DNA from: Sphagnum compactum
Lineage: Eukaryota
NCBI GenBank assembly: GCA_965153455.1
Contig: OZ234493.1
Location: 27,456,213-27,520,212 of the forward strand
DNA: 64,000 nt
Direction of reading: 5' to 3'
The position numbers and the translations under genes were made by a program. Of this stretch, positions 36,105-62,429 are shown piece by piece; the first letter of the stretch is position 1; every line of letters begins with the position of its first letter. The notes below the pieces were generated by a model. That model was not told the DNA's origin. It saw only the letters and a program-made list of their open reading frames with translations, and ran no database searches.

Positions 36105-38173
36105 ATGGGGAAAGGAACAGGATGTATTGGAAGCAAGGGTCTTCTATCCAAGAAGAAAGCCCCAACTGAGAATGCAGGGGGGTTTCCCTCCACCACCACA
36201 GCAGCAGCACCAGCTACTGCAACAACTCCCAACACCCAGGAGCAGCAGCAGGAGGAGGAGGAGGCCAAAACCAACAACTCAGACGTGCAGCTTGAAGAAG
36301 AAAAACCAGTAGCTTCTTCAACTCCAGCTCAACCCACTGAAGAAGTGGCAGCATCCTTGAACCCAACAACCCACAAAGTCAAACTCTTCATTGTGTGAGT
36401 TTGTTCTTCCTGATGAGTTGTTAAATTCTTGCAGAGGATTTGAGCTTGATTTTCAGTTCTAGTTTCTCCACCCAGATCTGCTGTCAGTTTGCTCCTGACT
36501 ACTTGACTCAGTGTGAGATTCTAGGATTTTCTAGAGCTTCTTCTGTAACCTAACCTCCTCCTCCTCCTCCTCCTCCACCCATAGTTCCAAAAAAGTTTTT
36601 GGAACAGTTTGATTCTTGGGTTTTTATTTTCTAATTTCGTAATCTGTAGACATAACTTCAGCATCTTAGCACAAAAGTGAATCCATTTGTTGCCTCAATC
36701 AGTAGGTACACTACACATCAGTGGTGATATGTTATCTAGGGTTGTCCCCAACCTGAACATATGGCTTTCTCCATGGCTTTGGCCTAGATGCTTGGTTGCT
36801 GGCTTGCTAAAATGAAATGAACCTTCACCTGACAAGCTTGTTGCAACTTGAATGATGGATATGATTATGGCCTTGAAAATGAGGATATGATTGTCACCGC
36901 TGCGAGTGCTAGCCCAAAGATACCCGATAGTTATGAGGGTTTACGAAGTCAGGAAATCTTTTAATGTATATATATATTGTACCCTAATTTTCTTGACCAT
37001 AACTTTGTGTATACTTACTTATTGTACAGCCTCAGGGGTGTAAATCTTGGGCACCCAATGCCCAAACACAGTTTTTTTCCTCGTAGTTATGAGAGTTTGA
37101 AGAGTTGGGAAATTTTTTTGAACAATTTTTTTTGGGCCCCAAGTTCTGACCATTATCATTGTATATACATATCTACTGAAACTAAGAAATTTCTGTCGTG
37201 GGTTTCAGAGCATGGCTAATTTTGTTGCCTTATTGAGTCATACGAGCTTTCATTCGATGATGACAATGGAGGGTTGTGAAAATTCATTCACAGAAGATAA
37301 CTAGAAATAATTTGAATGTAATTTCTTTGCCAGGGAATTTTGTATTCTTTCACATGCTTTTTGATTTTTGGGCATCTCACAGGTACTACTCCATGTATGA
37401 CCATGTGCTCTCATTGGCCAAGAAAGTAAAAGAGGGAGCAGATTCGGTGGAAGGAGTGGAGGCCGTGCTTTACCAAGTCCCAGAAACCCTATCGCCTGAA
37501 GTGCTTGAGAAAATGAGTGCACCAGCCAAAGATAAATCCATTCCCATCATATCACCAGCAGAATTGGCAGATGCAGATGGAATTATATTCGGTTTTCCTA
37601 CTCGATACGGCTCCATGTCTGCTCAAATGAAAGCCTTCTTCGATAGCACTGGTGCCCTTTGGCGAACTCAGGCGCTTGTTGGCAAGCCAGCTGGAATTTT
37701 TACCAGCACAGGCAGTCAAGGTGGCGGTCAGGAGACGACTGCGTAAGAAGAAACACCCAAGAAACTTCCCCTTCTTATTTCATTTCAAGTTGAAATTTTG
37801 TTGAAGAACACTTGGGTTGTTACTGATTTTATTAATTATTAATTATCTTATCTTATTTTTATTTTTGCTTCAAAATTTTGGAAATCTTTGCAATGTTGCT
37901 TCTTCACTCATGTCACATGGGATTTGTCTCAAATGGGGCAGGTGGACGGCAATCACGCAGCTCTCACACCATGGAATGCTTTTTGTGCCTATTGGCTATA
38001 CATTTGGTGCAGATATGTTCTCATTGGAACAGCCTCGTGGTGGATCACCATATGGAGCTGGAACATTTGCTGGTGATGGTACCAAAACTCCCACTGACAC
38101 AGAACTTGCTCTTGCTGAGCACCAGGGCCGATACACTGCTGCTATCGCCAAGAAACTTGTCAGTAACAATTGA
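36105..38173 (+). CDS. Flavodoxin-like NAD(P)H dehydrogenase (quinone), WrbA/FQR1 family, FQR1-like-2 type with N-terminal extension
   Basis: Exons 36105-36394, 37383-37742, 37942-38173 (GT-AG, phases consistent). Motifs KLFIVYYSMYDHV, QVPETL, ELADADGIIFGFPTRYGSMSAQMKAFFDSTG, KPAGIFTSTGSQGGGQETTA, HHGMLFVPIGY, RGGSPYGAGTFAGDG; N-terminus MGKGTGC. Confidence 0.96.
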
Positions 38174-52704: not shown

Positions 52705-55700
52705 GGTGGAGGGAGCTCCCAGTCAGATTCCTCAAGGTTCCAGCAGCATCTGTCTGTGCATCGCCCCAAACAAGGTTTGGAAAGCTGAATAATGCCTGTG
52801 AATAATGTCACAAGAAACAGTGCAGAGGATTGGAAGTAATGGTTGTGGAATGCAATCATAATACCTTGTTCTTCACTTGTCATTGAGCTCAATATTGAAC
52901 AATCTTGTGCTGAGGATTGCTACCAGACAATATGTCCAGTATTCTCTAAGTCACTGATTGACTGAATGGGTCCTTATGCGAGCATGTTCTTTCATACAGA
53001 ATCACAATTTGTATGTGACCACCTGTATCTGATTGATGAATTCTGCAAACATAGCTCTATTTGTGGGGTTTCTTAGCTAGCTCCTCTTGTTGGACTGGAA
53101 GATATGTTTTTGTGAAGAAGCATTGATTGGTAGTAGGATTTCAATTCTCAGGACAAAGGTCTGCAGAGAGCTTTAAGAGAAGAGCAGTGCAATCCAGCTA
53201 CAAATGTGGTGAGCCTGAAGGTGGTGGGAATACGATCAAGGTTCCTGTGTCATCTGTGAGCACCTGCATAAGCAGCAACACCCTGCTGAAAGCCTCAGAG
53301 GGCAGAACTGTTAGAAGCTTGCTTTCTGACGATGGGTCAAGCTTGCGATCTGATGTGGATGAACTCAAGGAGGAGCTTGCTGCACTTCGTCACAGGCTGG
53401 CTGCTGAAGAAGAAGAAGCAAAAAGACTTAGAGAAGAGGTATGGTGCTTTGTGCTTGATGTTTCCCATAAAGCCACATATCATTTTTGGATCAACTATAC
53501 AGCCTAGAACATAACTAACTTCTGTTTTCCACAGGTGAACTATCTGCGCTCCTGTGGTGTCCTTCACAAACCTGAAAATTGTTATCAGGCACAAGCTTCA
53601 AAAAGCAGGGAGACACTTTTTCCACAAGATTCGAAGCCCTTGTCAATCTGTGATGATGCTACTGACATGAGGAAGCAACAAAACAGAGATGGATCAGTCA
53701 AGCAGTTCCAAAGATGTTTCTCTGGACCTCTGAGTTGGACTGGCAGCTTAGATGAATCTCTCAGTCTACCCCGGGATGCATCCATTGGGTAAGTCCTGAA
53801 ACTCAGGAATATTTTCCAGATAGCTTCTGGGGGAGAGAAGTTGGGATTAACTGGTAGCAATTGAACTTGAAGCTTCATAAATTTTCCTTCTTCAGGTCTG
53901 TGGCTGCAGCAGAAGTAAATGGCCTGCAGCAAGTACATACAAAAGTTCTTCAGCCAGTTCACTCCTTCAAACCCCAATTTCAGCTCTACCACACATGGGA
54001 TGAACAGAACATACATTCAGAGAGGTCAAACCCCACCAGTGACAATGGACCAGATACGAAGATACTTGGAGGAATGGTCTCAAGGACTTCCACCTCAGGC
54101 CTGAGCTATAAGAACTCTTCACTCACAAGTACCAGTTTGGCTTCCTGGGCAATCCATGAAAAAGAGAATCTTCAAACCTTGCAGGTAAAACCTCTTTGAT
54201 GTAATGAATTTACTTCATGGAGAGTACCTCTCTGGAAGTGTAGAACTTCTGTTTGCTTGATCTGACATGTCTATATTTAATGCTCACAGGAAAATGGAAA
54301 GGTTGAGAGTTTGGGCTCCATCAATGGCACTACCCAATTAAATGAATCTACAGAAGTTCAATGGATTGAGGTTCGTGATGGCCCATGTCCCAGCAGCTCC
54401 TCAACAAATGTGAAGCTGAGTCCCGATTCTCTGAAAGATAATGCAAAGTCTCCCCATAAGTCATCACTGCAGATGTGGGGTGCTGTAGACAGTGCTGATA
54501 CCTTGCTAAAGGATCTGCAAAAAGCACGGAAGAGGCGACAAAGAAGGGTAGCACATCAGGAACCCATTGGAAGTCAGGCCAATGGCCGATCCCTGAGTCC
54601 TGTAAGCTCAAATCATGCCATACTTTCTGGTCCTTTTGAGGACCAGTCCTCGAGTGTGGTAGAATCATTCAACCGGCAGCAGCAAGCCCAACTGTCTTTG
54701 ACAAGTAGCTCACCCAGTAATGTAGGCAGCCTCTTTGGTACATCACGAAAGAGGTCCATGACATTCAGGTCTCGTGGATTCTGGCAACCACTATCACCTG
54801 TGAAAGAAGCGTTGTCTACAGAAGAAGTATCCTTGAGTAGCAAAAGTGAGGTAGAGCAGGTTTTGAGAAACCATGAAATGCCTTGCAGTGCTGGGGTCAT
54901 GTTGAGTGACAGCAATAGGAACCAAAGCTTTGAAACCTCTGCAGCTCCTGAAGACCCTGAAGCAGGAACTGAGAAGCAGCCTGAAGGAATCTTTGATGCA
55001 AATGGTCATGCACCTAGTAGGTTTGTAGGCAGCACAGACCTTGAACCTGTCCAGTGTGCCTCTCCATCCCCCTCTCCAAGAAAATGGTCTGCTTCCAGAG
55101 AACCTGACATGCTCTGTAATTTACCTGTTTCATCAAACACAGCACTTGGTTCTCCTGTTGTTGAACCAGAGCTTTTGAGCGGTGTCGAGGGAAAACTTGT
55201 GTATGCAGTGTTTGATAATGCTTTTGCTTCTGATGATGATGGAGAAGAGGTCATGCCCCTGCAGTGTGTCTCCCCTACCTTCACCCCAAAGAGAAAGCCA
55301 TCAAGAAGTGCAGTTTATCAGGCCACAGAATTCAAAAGAAATGAGCTGCCTTCACTATTGAATTCAGCTGAGTCTATGGGCAGCAGAGATCATGAACTTC
55401 TGCCAAAGTTTGAGAATCAGGTTATTCCTTTGCCATCAACAGCTAACAGCTCTTGCTGGACTTTGTCGCCTGAGAATATTGACTTCCATCCCAACATCGG
55501 TGATCAACAAGGCCATGCAGATGCAGGTACAGATGCTATGCAAAGCATCAATTGTATTCAGTTCGCAACAAAAGAGCAAGAGTCAATGCCTCCCAAGGAA
55601 ACAGACCCTGTGGGAAAGCAATGGCACCAGAATACAAGGCCACTGCAGGTCAAATCTGCAGAGAAGGAAGTTGCAAAGCAAGATTTCCTGTCTTATGTAT

Positions 55701-57177
55701 ATGACACTGATGAGAAGACAAAGACTCATGAGAAAGAATGTACAATCAAGATGCAGCAGGAGACGGAACAACAAATACCCATTGAGGACTGTAAGACACC
55801 ACCTACTTCTTTGGTCATGAGTCGAGTTCAATACTGGAACTCTGTGCACAAGTCTGCCTCAAGTGATGAAAAATCAAGCTCAGATTCCAAGAAAGGTCAG
55901 TGTCAATTGATGCTGCTTGCATTTATTCATATGGGAATTCTGTTTTGGTTGTAGAGCTTGGCTCCAGTTATGTATGCTGCAGAATGATCAAGCGTTCAGT
56001 ATGAAAAGACTCATATTCTCTAACTTGACCATGAAGAAGTTGAGCAAGATGTTTCCAATAGTAGTCTTACCTTCTTGCTCTTCTGAACTTATTCAAGGTG
56101 TCTGAGCTTGATGCCTGACAGTGCAATTGCTGGTACAATTGGCTCAGGTGGGCGGAAGAGAGATGGAAAGGAAGCCAGCATGGATAGCAGTGAGACAAAC
56201 AGTGTCTCCACCACCTTCTCTATAGACTTGGGTTGCTCAGAAAACTCTCCCATGAACTATGAATCATGCAGTGAATTTGAGGGTTCTGACAGCTACTATG
56301 AGTCATCTGCACAACCCTTGGTGGATGTAGATGGCACAGAGAAAGAAGATGGCTCCAGATGTTCTAGGGGTCTGCTGCTAACAACTCCTTCCAAGCATGC
56401 TTCAGTTTTTCAAGAGCAATCTGCTCCCTCAAGTGGCTCAAACAAGCAGAGTATGATGTTGTCGCAAGGCGACAGCAGTCCAAAGGGCAGACCTATATTG
56501 GGTGTGGTTCCAGCAGCCAATTGGGAGAACATTCTTGCCCAGTCCCCACAGCTATGGGATGGCAAAGGCGAACCAAATCTCACTCACAAATACAAGGAGG
56601 TATTCTACTACTGCTTGCCAGAAAAATCCTTTGCAATTCCTGGAATCTTTTGTTATCTGTTGAAACTGATGTTGGCAATTCTTACATTAGTGATAAAGCT
56701 CAGAGTTTTTTGCAACATTTAGCTATAGGGTATAGCCCACCTTCAGCTTATGGTTCTGTAAAGTGTGATTGATGTGGGACGGAGATGGTGGAACAGGATC
56801 AGAAAGTGAACTGGCATGGAACACCATTTGAGGTACGAGTTGAGCGTGCTCTTGCCAATCAGTCAGATGTGTCTCCCAGGTGCAATACTTACCAACCCTG
56901 CAGTTTTGGTTTGATCTTCCTATGTCTCCTCAAATTCTCGTGTTTGATCTTCCCCAGCATCAGATTCAATTTAAGAACAAACTTGCTCTGAAGAAACCTG
57001 GTGCCACTGCTGGAGGAGGCTATTTGGTTTTTTGCACTGAACTTTGAACATGAAACTTTGCCATTTCCATTTCTGGAGAGTTAATTTGGAAGGTTTTGTT
57101 TGTTGTGTGAATACAGGATGCTCTTTGGAGTAGTTTCCGCAAACTTGTCAGTACGAAGTAGCCTGGAGATGCGCTAG
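52705..57177 (+). CDS. JASON-family protein (plant-specific; meiotic spindle/organelle positioning in Arabidopsis); start codon unresolved
   Basis: Exons (52705-52774), 53152-53438, 53535-53788, 53896-54184, 54290-55895, 56148-56599, 56797-56879, probably 57117-57177; phases consistent. C-terminal signature RPILGVVPAANW..SPQLWDGKGEPNLTHKYKE|DQKVNWHGTPFEVRVERAL and N-terminal coiled coil ..LREEVNYLRSCGVL match JASON-family motifs; long Ser-rich disordered middle. First and last exons are uncertain. Confidence 0.85.
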
Positions 57178-57775: not shown

Positions 57776-58705
57776 ATAGAAAAGTTTCCTGCAATCTGTG
57801 GCAAGAAATCTGGGCTGCTTGTTGTTGATGCTCCTACTACTCCTTTGGTCAAGCTGTTCCTTCTAAAGAAAAGTTCCCTGAAATGCTGTGGGAAGAAATC
57901 TGCTACTTGTTGTTGATGCTCTCAAATCCTTAGGATAGAGAAAAGAAAATTTTCCTCGTATTTTTTGTGGCAAGAAATCTGCAGCTTCATTGATTCTCTG
58001 AATTCTAGAGAAAAAAAGATTCCGGGTTCTTGTCGTGGCAAGAATCTGCTGCTTGTTGGTGATCCTATTCCCTAGAGAAAAGTTTGTTGTGACAACAGAT
58101 CCGCTCCTTGATGCTCGTTATCCTGAGGTGTTAGCATGCTACAGAACCCTAAACCCTAGAGAAAAGTTTTCTGGAATTTGTGGCAAGAAATCTGCTGCTT
58201 TGATGGTCCTAATTCTTAGGTGAGGATGCTAAACAAAACTTTTTCCTGGTACTTGTGGCAAGGAGTCTGCTGCTTGATTGATGCTCATGATGCCCTGAGG
58301 TAGGGATCCTAGAGAAAAGTTTGCTGGAAGTTGTGGCAAGCAAATCTGCTGATTGCTTGCTTGATGCTCCTAATCCTTAGCTACTACTAATAAGTGTGCC
58401 AGAGAAAAAAATGTTTGCTGGAATTGTGTGGCAAGAAATCTGCTTCTTGCTTGATGCTCCTAAGATTTCTTAGCGTAAGGATTCAAGAGCAAAGTTTGCT
58501 GGAATTTGTGGCAAGAAAGATATATGTTGCTTGATGCTCCTCCTAATCCTGAGCTAGAGATCCCTAGTAGAGAAAAGTTGCCTGGGAATTTGTGGCAAGA
58601 AATTCTGTTGCTTGATGATGCTCCTAATCCTGAGCTAGGGTTTTCTACAGAAAAGTTCCCTGGTATCTTTGTGGCAAGAGATTTTGCTTCTTTGATGCTC
58701 AAAGA
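57776..58705. repeat. Degenerate tandem array, 12 units of ~65-90 bp, upstream of the QueC-like gene
   Basis: Consensus AGAAAAGTT(T/C)(C/G)CTGGAATTTGTGGCAAGAAATCTGCTGCTTG..TTGATGCTCCTAATCCT followed by variable tails; GTGGCAAG-like cores near 57798, 57888, 57967, 58036, 58089, 58180, 58255, 58333, 58428, 58508, 58592, 58671. Confidence 0.92.
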
Positions 58706-58789
58706 AAAACATGGGTCTTCTTTGTTTTTTGGTATCATCCAATTTCCTGCATAGCCTGTGAGGAGGAGGTTTGGAGCTTCTTTTTGAAC

Positions 58790-58820
<31 letters not shown>

Positions 58821-58827
58821 GAGAGAG
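58790..58827. repeat. (GA)n microsatellite in the 5' region of the QueC-like gene
   Basis: Near-perfect GA run about 55 bp upstream of the ATG; similar (GA)n runs occur at ~2130, ~15160 and ~15495. Confidence 0.9.
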
Positions 58828-58881
58828 GGGGAGGGCTTTTCTGACGGTGATGATGCTGTGCTTCAGGAAGAAGAAGAGTCG

Positions 58882-61405
58882 ATGGCGGGATCAAGTGTGG
58901 TGTTGATGAGTGGAGGAATAGAGAGTGCAGCACTGCTATACCATTGGAGATCATCTGCATCTCGTCTTCATCCTTTGTAACTCTATCCTTCTCTCCCCTT
59001 CCGTCCCTTTCCCTCCCCCTTCTTCCCTCGCTCGTCATCAGCATTGAATATTTGCAGCATTCAGTAATTTGCTTTGAAGGTCAGGGTTCAGAAATTTTGT
59101 AATTGCCACTGGTGCCTTGAAATCAGGGAGCGATCAGGATTCTTCCTCTTCTCTGTGGAATCTCCACAAATGCATGGCGTGTTCTAACCATGAAATAGCG
59201 TGACATATTATAAATGAAGTTTGCTAGGGTTAGCGTTGGTGACAGTAAAACCCTAAATTTGATCAAATGCCTCTCCCATTTTTGTTGCTGAGAAACATCA
59301 TAGATGCAGATTATGGGTAACACTGAGCAAGAGTGGTATGGTATGGAAGGTATATAAATTATGGTCAGAAGGGTGCTACCATGGAAGAACGGGCATGCGA
59401 TAAACTCTGTCAGCATCTTAACCTTCAGCTTGGGCGCATCAATATGTCTTCTGTGAGTATTCTATTTTTTCTCCTTGCAGCTGAATAAGTATCGTAGATT
59501 TGCTTGTTGTTTGATTGAAGATGGGTGGTGTCAAAGGTTGCTAAATATTCTTCAGATCATTTGTGTCCCCCTCTTTAGGGTTTGAGATTTGGTGATGCTC
59601 CTGTTTTCAATCTTCCACAGAGGAAAGGTGTGTGAAGGATCTAAGTATTATAGTTCACTGTCTAATAATTTCAAATCTTTGGTTGAAAGCTTTCTTGTGT
59701 TTTCTTGCTTGTTGCTGCAAAGCTTATGGAACAGATATGGCATTCTGGTGCCATTTGTGTCATTTGGTTTAATTGGGTTGGATAAGGGTGCAGGTTGGTG
59801 AAGAATTTAGGGCATTACAACAGCCAGCAAAGTCATTTGTACCTTTACCTCATCGAAATCTTGTGATTTTGGCACTTGGAGCTAGTTATGCCTGCCAGGT
59901 AAAACTCCAATGTTTGTCCAGATTGTGTAGGCAAAGGATTCAGGAAACTTCAGGATTGGCAATGTGCATATATGAACTTTTTGATGCCTTGAAAGAGCAA
60001 AATCTCTTCAGACAAGTATTATGAGGGAACCCATCAAGTTGTAGTACATACAAGATGGGTCCTTGGAATGAATGAATTTGTATATGTCACCTCATCAGGC
60101 CTCCTTCACCTCTGCGCAAATTGGGGGTGCAGTTAGAAAGCAAACTTTTTACTAGGTCATATTTTTTATTTCTGTGCTAGGTTTCTCTAACCTGAACTGT
60201 TATGAGATTGCTTCTTCTTCAGTATGTGTTGTGTGGTGAAGACTTTAAGATGGGTATGATGAATGGGGCTGATTGGGGGTGTGAAGGTAGGGTCAAGAGT
60301 GATTGCACTTGCACTGAATAAAGATGACCTTGGTTCTTATTCAAGGTATGTCCATCCAGGCTTATTTTGGTGTTTTATCCTGAGTGCTCTTATATACCCC
60401 CTTGGACATTTTGTAAGGTGTGGAAGATGTAGATCCTTCTGGAGACTGCAACTTGCTTGTGCCAAAATAGCACATACCCTAGAATTGAAGGTTTGGAGAG
60501 CATTGGAATGTAAGCGCATGAGTTCTGTTAGATGGGCAAGTACAACCAAACCCAGAATTGAGCTTTTGACTGTTTTGGTCCCCTTGCAAACTGTTTGAAA
60601 CAAATGGGCGTTGAGATCATTAGCTGGTATTCAGAGAGTCTGATGTGAATCTCGCATTTTGTGGGAAGAAATAAGAAACTTTTTCATCGTTTGCAGTTCA
60701 TCACAGTCATTTCTTGATAGTTTTCGAGCAACAGCAGCCACTTTGAAGCCATCACTAACTTTGGTTGCGCCACTTAGGTAAAGGGCAAACCCTAACCCAT
60801 GTTTGCATTTATTGGTGAAACTAGTTTTGTACGGGGAGTGCTGTTCAGGGGTGGGATGGTTTCTGAACAAAGTATATATAGAGCTGCTGCAAAGCAGCAT
60901 AAAATTGGCGGCAGCGCCTCTTGTAGAAATCTTCATCAGTTTATGCAATTGTTGAACTTTTCTGTCCCCACTGCTACAGCCATTTAACAAAGGCGCAAGT
61001 GGTGACATTTGGCAATCACTTGGGGGTGCCTTTTGCTGACACCTATAGTTGCATGGTTGGTCGACCCCGGCATTGTGGCCACTGTCATCAGGTCCCTCTC
61101 TCCCTTCTCCAATTTTACTATTCAGATTTGCATGTTATGTTGTGCTACCTAACGTTTTGATTTTGTTGTGCTTCTTTCTTCTCCATTGTTCTTTAAATTT
61201 GGAAATTGCACATAGTTACCAAATAATTGCCATTAAGAAAGGAAATTGACTACTAATGGCCCACGGATTCACATCAGGAGATATGAAGTCAGGTGGAGGT
61301 ATTGAGTAGTAGGACGTGATTTTGGTTTCTTTGCAGTGTAAATTGCGACGACAGGCTTTTGCACATGTATCCATTGAAGAACCCCCAGGATTTTATGAGC
61401 AATAA
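58882..61405 (+). CDS. queC: QueC-like protein (7-cyano-7-deazaguanine synthase / PP-loop ATPase family), 7 exons, 207 aa
   Basis: Exons 58882-58976, 59350-59452, 59794-59898, 60287-60345, 60697-60777, 60980-61091, 61337-61405 (624 nt, all GT-AG, no internal stops). Protein: MAGSSVVLMSGGIESAALL (PP-loop) .. LHPLYINYGQKGATMEERA .. FVPLPHRNLVILALGASYA .. LALNKDDLGSYSSSSQSFLDSF .. LVAPLSHLTKAQVVTFGNHLGVPFADTYSCMVGRPRHCGHCHQCKLRRQAF (C-x7-C-x2-C-x2-C zinc site). Motif order is that of QueC. Confidence 0.9.
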
Positions 61406-62429
61406 AAGCCCCATTCTTGTAACTCCCAATACCAGGTATTCAGGATGGAAAACTCTTGATAAATTCTAGTGGAGTATAGCCCCATTGAATATATCAGCAG
61501 ATATCATGACTTCAGTATGTAAGCAAAGCTGCAGAGAAGTCATTTTGTTGCATCATATTGCAGTTGCACAAATTGATAAGTTCAGGTTTTGCTGATGGCC
61601 TCAGCTTTTGCTTGCAATCAACACCTGACAGGTGACAAATTTTTGTATGCAAGGTGCTTCTTGTCTTATGTGGTTGGTCTACTTCATTCAACAAGGAGAC
61701 TTTGGCGAATTCCCACCAGATACTATGCAGCTAGAGAAGGTAGAGAAAAATGAAAAAAATCAATGTTCCTAAAACCATTTCTGCTTTAAAGTTTGTGAAT
61801 GTGATTGTGTCAGCATATCAACTTCAGATGGGCTATCACCACTCATGTTTGCACAGTGCTCTATTATGTTGTAAGTATGCCAATTGTGCTAGGTGATATT
61901 TTTGTCACTGTTCACTTTTGGTTTTGCACCTGCAGTTTGAACAAAATACTGTCTCACCTCACATCCAATGAATTGTAGCTGATTGATGCAAATGTTCTGA
62001 GGAGAAGCATCAACGAAAATGTCAACAAAACGTCTTCCTCCAGTTGGTGCATGATTGGCTTTCATGCAGACAGATAATGTACAAATCTTACGAATGAATT
62101 TAGTTTACCTCTATTATCCTTCTTCCATGCATCCCTCACAAGATAGACATTTACAACCTCCCGTTATCATTTAAGTTATTGTTTTTTGACCCTTGATTTT
62201 TTTGAGTTCTTCAGATCAAATGTTGTCTCTATGTGCAAATGTTGTGAGCCCCCTTATTGGAAACAAAAAGCATGGACTCAATTGTAAACCTAATTTGGGC
62301 TCTGTGCTGCTTTGCTCTAAGTGACAATGAATTGTTTTAAAAACAATGAAAGAAAAAGAAAACTACCGAAACTTCTGTCATTTTGACACATAATTTGTAT
62401 GTAGGTATCTAGGGTTAGGGTTTTCCCCT

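Follow-up and report, generated by a model that had tools for sequence, protein, structure and literature searches.

Canonical QueC, the 7-cyano-7-deazaguanine (preQ0) synthase that converts 7-carboxy-7-deazaguanine (CDG) to preQ0, carries the signature SGGxDS, YxQxHxxE, VPxRN, YPDC, K165, a Cys-rich zinc motif and Y189, and the substitutions Y35A, R99A, Y131A and Y189A abolished the function of the Escherichia coli enzyme (Libby et al., 2026, Biochem J, PMC13329287; here and below as given in excerpts of that paper). In the structure of Cap9 with CdnD, D117 hydrogen-bonds the deazaguanine, while Y115 and R86 stack on it (bioRxiv 2025.04.06.647259, excerpts). QatC of the QatABCD system is also a PP-loop enzyme of the QueC family, but is about 400 aa long, with extensions and remodelled motifs, and Cluster 4 of the PF06508 similarity network comprises mostly proteobacterial proteins that are ~10 residues shorter than QueC and show a variant YGQ...E motif (Libby et al., 2026, PMC13329287). 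In the same excerpts, 43 eukaryotic sequences of Cluster 1 are dismissed as artefacts, i.e. contaminants or symbiont transfers. Here we describe a QueC-family gene of Sphagnum compactum, located at 58882-61405 (+) of a 64,000-nt stretch of DNA, which as a whole is referred to as the window; all coordinates are positions in this window, and the gene lies on its + strand. It is an intact and intron-containing nuclear gene, as had been proposed in a first-pass annotation made from the sequence letters; it is transcribed, and its product belongs to an uncharacterised subfamily of QueC paralogues. We favor the reading that the product is an ATP-dependent carboxylate-adenylating enzyme, which probably amidates or ligates a planar acid other than CDG.

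Gene structure, transcripts and predicted fold

The three forward frames of 58500-61800 were translated, and joining of seven exons resulted in an open reading frame (ORF) of 624 nt and 207 codons, in which all six introns have GT..AG ends. The exon model of the first-pass annotation was thereby reproduced. In a scripted comparison the spliced product was identical at every residue to a database entry of 207 aa (P0001, 'unnamed protein product [Sphagnum compactum]'), which had been retrieved using the exon-6 frame as query and is encoded on a 36.9-Mb contig. The 90% cluster of P0001 holds 15 members, including proteins of S. fallax, S. jensenii, S. troendelagicum and S. magellanicum, and part of it carries the UniRef/IMG name '7-cyano-7-deazaguanine synthase'. 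The suspicion that homologues had already been annotated automatically was thus correct for this cluster, and for other green-lineage orthologues as well. The gene consists of the following parts:

58866..58881, + strand: 5' untranslated region (UTR) portion of the first coding exon; the acceptor 58865/58866 (cttcag/gaag) joins an upstream non-coding exon
58882..58976, + strand: coding exon 1, with the ATG; residues 1-31 plus 2 nt; PP-loop SGGIES at 58909-58926
58977..59349, + strand: intron 1, 373 nt, GT..AG; 23 junction reads; partly retained in polyA RNA
59350..59452, + strand: coding exon 2, which begins YINYGQKGATMEE; residues 32-66
59453..59793, + strand: intron 2, 341 nt, GT..AG; 57 junction reads
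59794..59898, + strand: coding exon 3; residues 67-101; VPLPHRNL with Arg87 and Asn88; QueC profile positions 86-109
59899..60286, + strand: intron 3, 388 nt, GT..AG; 39 reads for the main junction, 10 reads for a 392-nt skip
60287..60345, + strand: coding exon 4; residues 102-120 plus 2 nt; its end falls within Y119-S-S-S-S, which replaces YPDC
60346..60696, + strand: intron 4, 351 nt, GT..AG; 54 junction reads
60697..60777, + strand: coding exon 5; residues 121-147; Ser121 at the position of the deazaguanine-binding Asp of QueC and Cap9
60778..60979, + strand: intron 5, 202 nt, GT..AG; 63 junction reads
60980..61091, + strand: coding exon 6; residues 148-185; Lys152, TYSC and Met173; zinc cysteines 172, 180 and 183 (codons at 61050, 61074 and 61083); Pfam QueC E 1.4e-6 at profile positions 161-197
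61092..61336, + strand: intron 6, 245 nt, GT..AG; 63 junction reads; interrupts the four-Cys zinc site
61337..61405, + strand: coding exon 7; Cys186 to Gln207; stop codon TAA at 61403-61405
61436..61653, + strand: probable 3' UTR intron, 218 nt, GT..AG; begins 30 nt past the stop codon

About one third of the words sampled from a 2.9-kb stretch were found in 17 RNA runs of several studies, a share that fits exons without introns. The junctions were checked in raw polyA RNA-seq reads deposited under the same species label (X24) and in contigs of three metatranscriptome runs. All six junctions were crossed by X24 reads in the numbers listed above, on a single strand throughout, and all six were also detected in each metatranscriptome contig set, although the numbers of X1 and X2 are identical and these may be one data set deposited twice. 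Because spliced, single-strand polyA reads cover all six junctions, contamination and a pseudogene are excluded as explanations. Contamination had been considered unlikely from the outset, and the introns and the contig also speak against it.

The acceptor in front of the start codon is supported by loose ends before 58865 in five X24 reads and in one X5 contig, and the consensus of these ends resembles a 78-81-bp repeat unit, which suggests that the upstream non-coding exon lies in a repeat array. Behind the coding region, 47 X24 reads with loose ends after 61437 gave a consensus equal to the window from 61656, which points to the probable 3' UTR intron, although this is not a counted junction. 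A model with eight exons, the additional small one placed near 59579, was discarded, as its frame is broken and not a single read supported it. Two splicing variants were observed besides the main transcript. Intron 1 (58977-59349) is partly retained: its depth in X24 is 25-31, roughly half of the ~50 in the flanking exons and compared to 0-4 in the other introns, and its retention leads to a TAA stop directly after codon 32. A minor alternative acceptor (59898/60291), which lies 4 nt further downstream than the main acceptor of exon 4, was used in 10 reads against 39 and would shift the frame.

When the spliced protein was compared to Pfam, residues 5-196 matched positions 2-209 of the 210 positions of the QueC profile (PF06508) with 123.9 bits, far above the cut-off of 22, whereas the next-best families, the PP-loop family ATP_bind_3 (20 bits) and ThiI (11 bits), stayed below their own cut-offs. 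QueC is therefore the best model for the protein and no other PP-loop family took its place. Exons translated singly matched Pfam QueC, and no other family, in three of six cases, and these matches are colinear along the profile (positions 2-23, 86-109 and 161-197). The whole motif series named in the first-pass annotation is present in P0001: SGGIES (10-15), NYGQ (35-38), PHRN (85-88), PLSHLTKAQ (146-154), TYSC (169-172) and Cys172/180/183/186. An AlphaFold model computed with 22 relatives as input reached a mean predicted local distance difference test (pLDDT) value of 93.3. In a Foldseek search of the PDB with this predicted model, the top match was Cap9 (9nto_B; 27% identity, template modelling (TM) scores 0.73/0.83), followed by QueC of Bacillus subtilis and of Erwinia (3bl5 and 2pg3, TM ~0.8), while TtuA, NcsA and other PP-loop enzymes ranked far lower. 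A profile of the family gave a similar picture against the solved structures (3bl5 83.5 bits, 2pg3 79.5 bits, Cap9 74.2 bits), and the ESM Atlas yielded generic QueC clusters only. According to the model, the protein thus folds like QueC, with a PP-loop ATP pyrophosphatase domain and a four-Cys zinc knuckle.

In land-plant proteins the PP-loop lies directly at the N-terminus without any extension, whereas the chlorophyte proteins and those of a clade around the cryptophyte Hanusia carry N-terminal extensions of 45-110 residues. As it lacks such an extension, the 207-aa Sphagnum enzyme is presumably cytosolic; that the extensions of the chlorophyte and Hanusia-clade proteins target an organelle is only an inference.

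Departures from QueC, Cap9 and QatC

Despite the full-length domain match, P0001 reached only 107.2 bits against TIGR00364, the NCBIfam equivalog model of QueC, which has a cut-off of 150.3 bits. As a control, both QueC-family genes of five bacterial genomes were scored: all five canonical copies passed (198-210 bits), whereas none of the five bacterial relatives of the plant protein did (79-119 bits). Six further eukaryotic members also stayed below the cut-off (76-118 bits), so that none of the seven, including P0001, passed.

To compare single residues, 173 sequences were aligned, and residues were counted in 84 paralogue-type and 67 canonical-type sequences. The PP-loop SGGxDS is changed to SGGIES in the Sphagnum protein; at this position the clade contains Glu in 58 and Asp in 15 of 84 sequences, compared to Asp in all 67 canonical-type sequences. 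This alternation of Asp and Glu is conservative and would be consistent with retained catalysis. In the YxQxHxxE motif, Tyr36 and Gln38 are kept, but His is replaced by Gly40 and Glu is shifted by one residue. The position of E. coli His39 is occupied by His in 0/84 paralogue-type versus 27/67 canonical-type sequences. VPxRN reads L84-P-H-R87-N88, with Arg and Asn each conserved in 80 of the 84 clade members. YPDC is replaced by Y119-S-S-S, in which Ser121 takes the place of the Asp (Ser, Thr or Gly in 69/84 and Asp in 3/84 clade members; a sorting criterion), and Met173 occupies the position of E. coli Y189 after the first zinc cysteine (Met or Leu in 69/84 clade members, Tyr, Phe or Trp in 67/67 canonical-type sequences; likewise a sorting criterion). 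In common with canonical QueC, the zinc site Cys172/180/183/186 and Lys152, the equivalent of K165, are retained, and Tyr36, Gln38, Arg87, Asn88, Lys152 and the four cysteines are each found in 76-83 of the 84 clade members. The spacing of the zinc cysteines and that of Q...E were also tried as clade markers and discarded, as neither separates the clade from short canonical-type QueCs. By the tests run on its sequence, the protein does not have the status of a canonical preQ0 synthase.

Cap9 of type IV of the cyclic-oligonucleotide-based anti-phage signalling system (CBASS; PDB 9NTO chain B) shares the compact QueC fold. In the profile alignment D117, Y115 and R86 of Cap9 correspond to Ser121, Tyr119 and Arg87 of the Sphagnum protein, and therefore the platform of Tyr and Arg that stacks on the deazaguanine is kept, while the Asp that reads the base, part of the YxDC motif in Cap9, is lost. 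With QatC the protein shares its membership in the family; the QatC model NF041925 (NCBIfam) gave 18.9 bits with a cut-off of 280, and the PADLOC model of QatC 13.5 bits. Features shared with Cluster 4 as described in the excerpts are the proteobacterial bias, the shorter length and the variant YGQ...E motif, but the zinc motif CH(x)5CxxCxGCxK of Cluster 4 does not fit the clade and differs from C(x)7CxxCxxC in the Sphagnum protein, and no gene with a PfkB domain was present among the scanned neighbors of the paralogue. The paralogue clade probably lies inside Cluster 1 of Libby et al. (2026).

Phylogeny and bacterial relatives

In a FastTree phylogeny of 149 rows, P0001 fell into a clade of 107 rows (support 99), separate from the canonical-type sequences. 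With IQ-TREE (LG+C20+F+G4, quick search, 92 rows, one fragment and two long rows having been dropped beforehand) the paralogue clade comprised 78 of the 92 rows with a support of 99 in the Shimodaira-Hasegawa-like approximate likelihood ratio test (SH-aLRT). Within this clade, 19 green-lineage rows are monophyletic (88) and sister to all other members (91), and nesting within a characterized eukaryotic family was not seen in this tree. The streptophyte rows consist of Klebsormidium, one further row, and then the lycophyte, the mosses (99) and the liverworts (99), and set apart from them stands a chlorophyte clade of Botryococcus, Micractinium, Parachlorella and Chlorella (95). Orthologues were identified in Ceratodon, Physcomitrium, Marchantia, two Riccia species, Diphasiastrum, Klebsormidium, Botryococcus, Micractinium, Parachlorella and Chlorella sp. 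A99.

Since the branching order inside the green group mirrors the species tree, the gene is ancient and has been passed on vertically since before the split of chlorophytes and streptophytes; it does not stem from a transfer specific to bryophytes. It had been suggested that the gene was acquired horizontally from bacteria long ago. Its bacterial type and its age agree with this suggestion, but a gain tied to non-seed plants is not supported, as chlorophytes and a cryptophyte carry the gene. Conservation of the lineage extends from chlorophyte algae to lycophytes. No fern or seed-plant protein was retrieved in word-based protein searches, which included the lycophyte protein as query and constitute weak evidence, and seed plants apparently lack the gene as far as these searches show.

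Hanusia phi falls into a second group of 14 rows, together with sequences that have N-terminal extensions. A tree in which this group was forced together with the green group was not rejected in the approximately unbiased test (p-AU 0.705) and had a log-likelihood higher by 9.7 units; the group was defined after the tree had been seen, and only one of its 14 rows is named. Among 12 longer relatives, another Pfam domain was found in two only, RWP-RK in Hanusia phi and HEAT repeats in one further protein, which is uninformative. In the Hanusia phi protein (P0046, 593 aa) RWP-RK (131-170) lies upstream of the QueC-like domain (386-582), and this may be a fusion of gene models.

A scan of one genome per prokaryotic species resulted in 161 relatives, of which the best 80 were kept. 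These share 35-49% identity with the plant protein and stem mainly from Gamma- and Betaproteobacteria that oxidise sulfur or iron, namely Thioalkalivibrio, Sulfuriferula, Sideroxydans, Acidihalobacter and many metagenome-assembled genomes (MAGs); one Polyangiaceae MAG is also among them. The paralogue is usually a second copy: a Pfam QueC search of five bacterial genomes detected two members in each, with 251-267 and 107-127 bits, and TIGR00364 identified a canonical copy above the cut-off in 4/5 and 3/5 of further paralogue-bearing genomes. Overall, the paralogue stands beside canonical QueC in 12/15 genomes. An even sample of 201 genomes from the class of genome G002 agrees with this. Eight of them have a paralogue-level match to the family profile (184-296 bits, with a gap down to 145), seven of which also have a canonical-level match; two genomes flagged as unpublished (G084 and G186) are outside these eight.

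Genomic linkage with queD or queE is absent for the paralogue: in G001 and G002, queE abuts canonical queC and not the paralogue. The neighborhood was analyzed in 80 bacterial loci, the ORFs of which were clustered all against all. In the gamma-type loci only (23), a TerB-domain gene divergently adjoins the paralogue (e.g. L025 7072-7599, -), while a divergent set of a thioredoxin-like [2Fe-2S] ferredoxin-like gene, an alpha/beta hydrolase and an ABC-2 exporter is confined to the beta-type loci (33; e.g. L038 4984-7814, -). Neither a cGAS/DncV-like nucleotidyltransferase (CD-NTase) nor QatA/B/D nor a defense-island context was found among the scanned bacterial neighbors.

As a separate observation, the large subunit of RuBisCO is encoded in 8/8 paralogue-bearing genomes of the G002-class sample compared to 88/201 overall, for which chance would account about once in 1000 if kinship is ignored. 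Ten other paralogue-bearing genomes are split evenly, with five encoding RuBisCO and five not; the latter include three Myxococcota-type MAGs and two small MAGs. A link of the paralogue to autotrophy by the Calvin-Benson-Bassham cycle is possible, the relatedness of the genomes being uncorrected in this comparison.

Proposed function, competing explanations and surroundings

Taken together, these results suggest a QueC-type reaction on another substrate. ATP would be bound at SGGIES, as in QueC and Cap9, and a carboxylate held between Tyr119 and Arg87 would be adenylated. Attack of an amine or of ammonia on the acyl-adenylate would yield an amide, possibly followed by a nitrile. With Asp replaced by Ser121, His by Gly40 and Tyr by Met173, the substrate would most likely be another planar (hetero)aromatic carboxylate instead of CDG. 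The first-pass annotation had seen the gene as a possible sign of unrecognized 7-deazaguanine chemistry and had named a repurposed adenylating or amide-forming enzyme as the other option. Of the two, the latter describes the data better, as the equivalog scores, the replaced Asp, His and Tyr and the coexistence of the clade with canonical QueC lend no support to synthesis of 7-deazaguanines.

Several points weigh against an enzyme that acts on an acid other than CDG. Three of the four QueC residues that are essential by mutation are kept (Tyr36, Arg87 and Tyr119), and CDG may therefore still be bound. The sorting into paralogue and canonical types made use of the YPDC-Asp position and of the Tyr position after the first zinc cysteine, so that the counts at these two positions are circular, while the sorting has no influence on the count at the His position, on the tree or on the equivalog scores. 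No neighbor family is common to the beta-type and gamma-type sets of loci. Further, the paralogue is the only QueC-family gene in three of 15 genomes, all of them MAGs (G006, G011 and G015). Matches to Tgt, to a PTPS/QueD-like protein (PTPS, 6-pyruvoyl-tetrahydropterin synthase) and to a QueE-like protein (80-86 bits with a cut-off of 300) are present in G006 and G015, whereas G011 has the Tgt match only. In G006 and G015 the paralogue might substitute for QueC, which is the best evidence for an occasional QueC role. On the other side, 28 of 31 genomes comprising G006 and its relatives have no QueC-family match at E <= 1e-12, one has a canonical and two have a paralogue match, and absence of QueC is therefore usual in this lineage. 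G006 itself has two Tgt copies, and its Polyangiaceae-related lineage probably salvages 7-deazaguanine precursors.

These MAGs, the strong Pfam match, the agreeing database names and the retained Tyr36, Arg87, Tyr119, Lys152 and zinc site would all fit a genuine but divergent preQ0 synthase, which would give green algae and non-seed plants a partial de novo or salvage pathway. We consider this unlikely, as all eukaryotic and bacterial members tested fall below a cut-off that every canonical control passes, the residues at the deazaguanine-binding Asp, the His and the Y189 equivalent are all replaced, and most of the paralogue-bearing genomes checked also possess canonical QueC. Chlorella and Chlamydomonas reportedly lack queuine synthesis, as is said in a report in J Bacteriol from 1988. 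Functional QueC is also stated to be absent from Eukarya in the excerpts of Libby et al. (2026, PMC13329287). Slightly less probable still is that the subfamily acts on 7-deazaguanine despite the lost Asp, either processing CDG, 7-amido-7-deazaguanine (ADG) or preQ0 obtained from associated bacteria or ligating it to a protein or metabolite. If this were true, green algae, bryophytes and lycophytes would have a deazapurine chemistry of their own, which is held to be absent from eukaryotes.

A ligase of the Cap9 or QatC kind, which would attach an activated carboxylate (a deazaguanine or another one) to a partner protein at its N-terminal amine, is about as improbable as the use of 7-deazaguanine. 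Cap9 is the top structural match of the predicted model and the closest solved sequence, its profile score is near that of QueC (74 versus 80-84 bits) and the compact size is alike, but Ser stands in place of Asp117, the QatC models score only 18.9 and 13.5 bits, and neither a CD-NTase, QatA/B/D or other conserved partner nor a defense-island context adjoins the bacterial members at the scanned loci. By far the least probable explanation is a recent bacterial transfer into bryophytes, contamination of the assembly having been refuted above. Proteobacteria are the nearest named non-eukaryotic relatives (40-49% identity); a recent arrival is nevertheless at odds with six spliceosomal introns, the 36.9-Mb contig, spliced strand-specific polyA reads and a monophyletic green clade that is sister to the bacterial members and not nested among them. 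An enzyme acting on a planar acid other than CDG thus stays the preferred reading.

Contrary to the view that eukaryotic Cluster 1 sequences are artefacts, the locus shows that a genuine nuclear gene, spliced and expressed, exists in at least one lineage of the QueC family. Since this sister branch has replaced key residues for binding of the queuosine precursor, the automatic name preQ0 synthase is probably misleading when pathways are reconstructed for bryophytes and algae. Orthologue sequences and their automatic names were known from databases, and the literature searched yielded no work on a QueC-like gene of plants or algae. The clade is a tractable target for enzyme discovery, as the protein is small and soluble, the model organisms Physcomitrium and Marchantia have orthologues, and Thioalkalivibrio and Sulfuriferula, with bacterial members, are in culture.

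Among 32 long ORFs of the window, a single one had a Pfam match, which together with an unmatched frame upstream of the gene is listed here:

37264-37743, + strand: exon-sized frame of an NADPH-dependent FMN reductase (FMN_red, PF03358, E 3e-14), an ordinary plant-type gene
54281-55951, + strand: uninterrupted open frame of 557 aa, ~3 kb upstream and without Pfam match; a plant-specific gene and a mobile element are both conceivable

Tandem arrays of the 78-81-bp units (58155-58638) and an (AG)19 microsatellite (58790-58827) closely precede the start codon. The 5' UTR exon seems to lie within the repeat array, with its GT donor inside a repeat unit.

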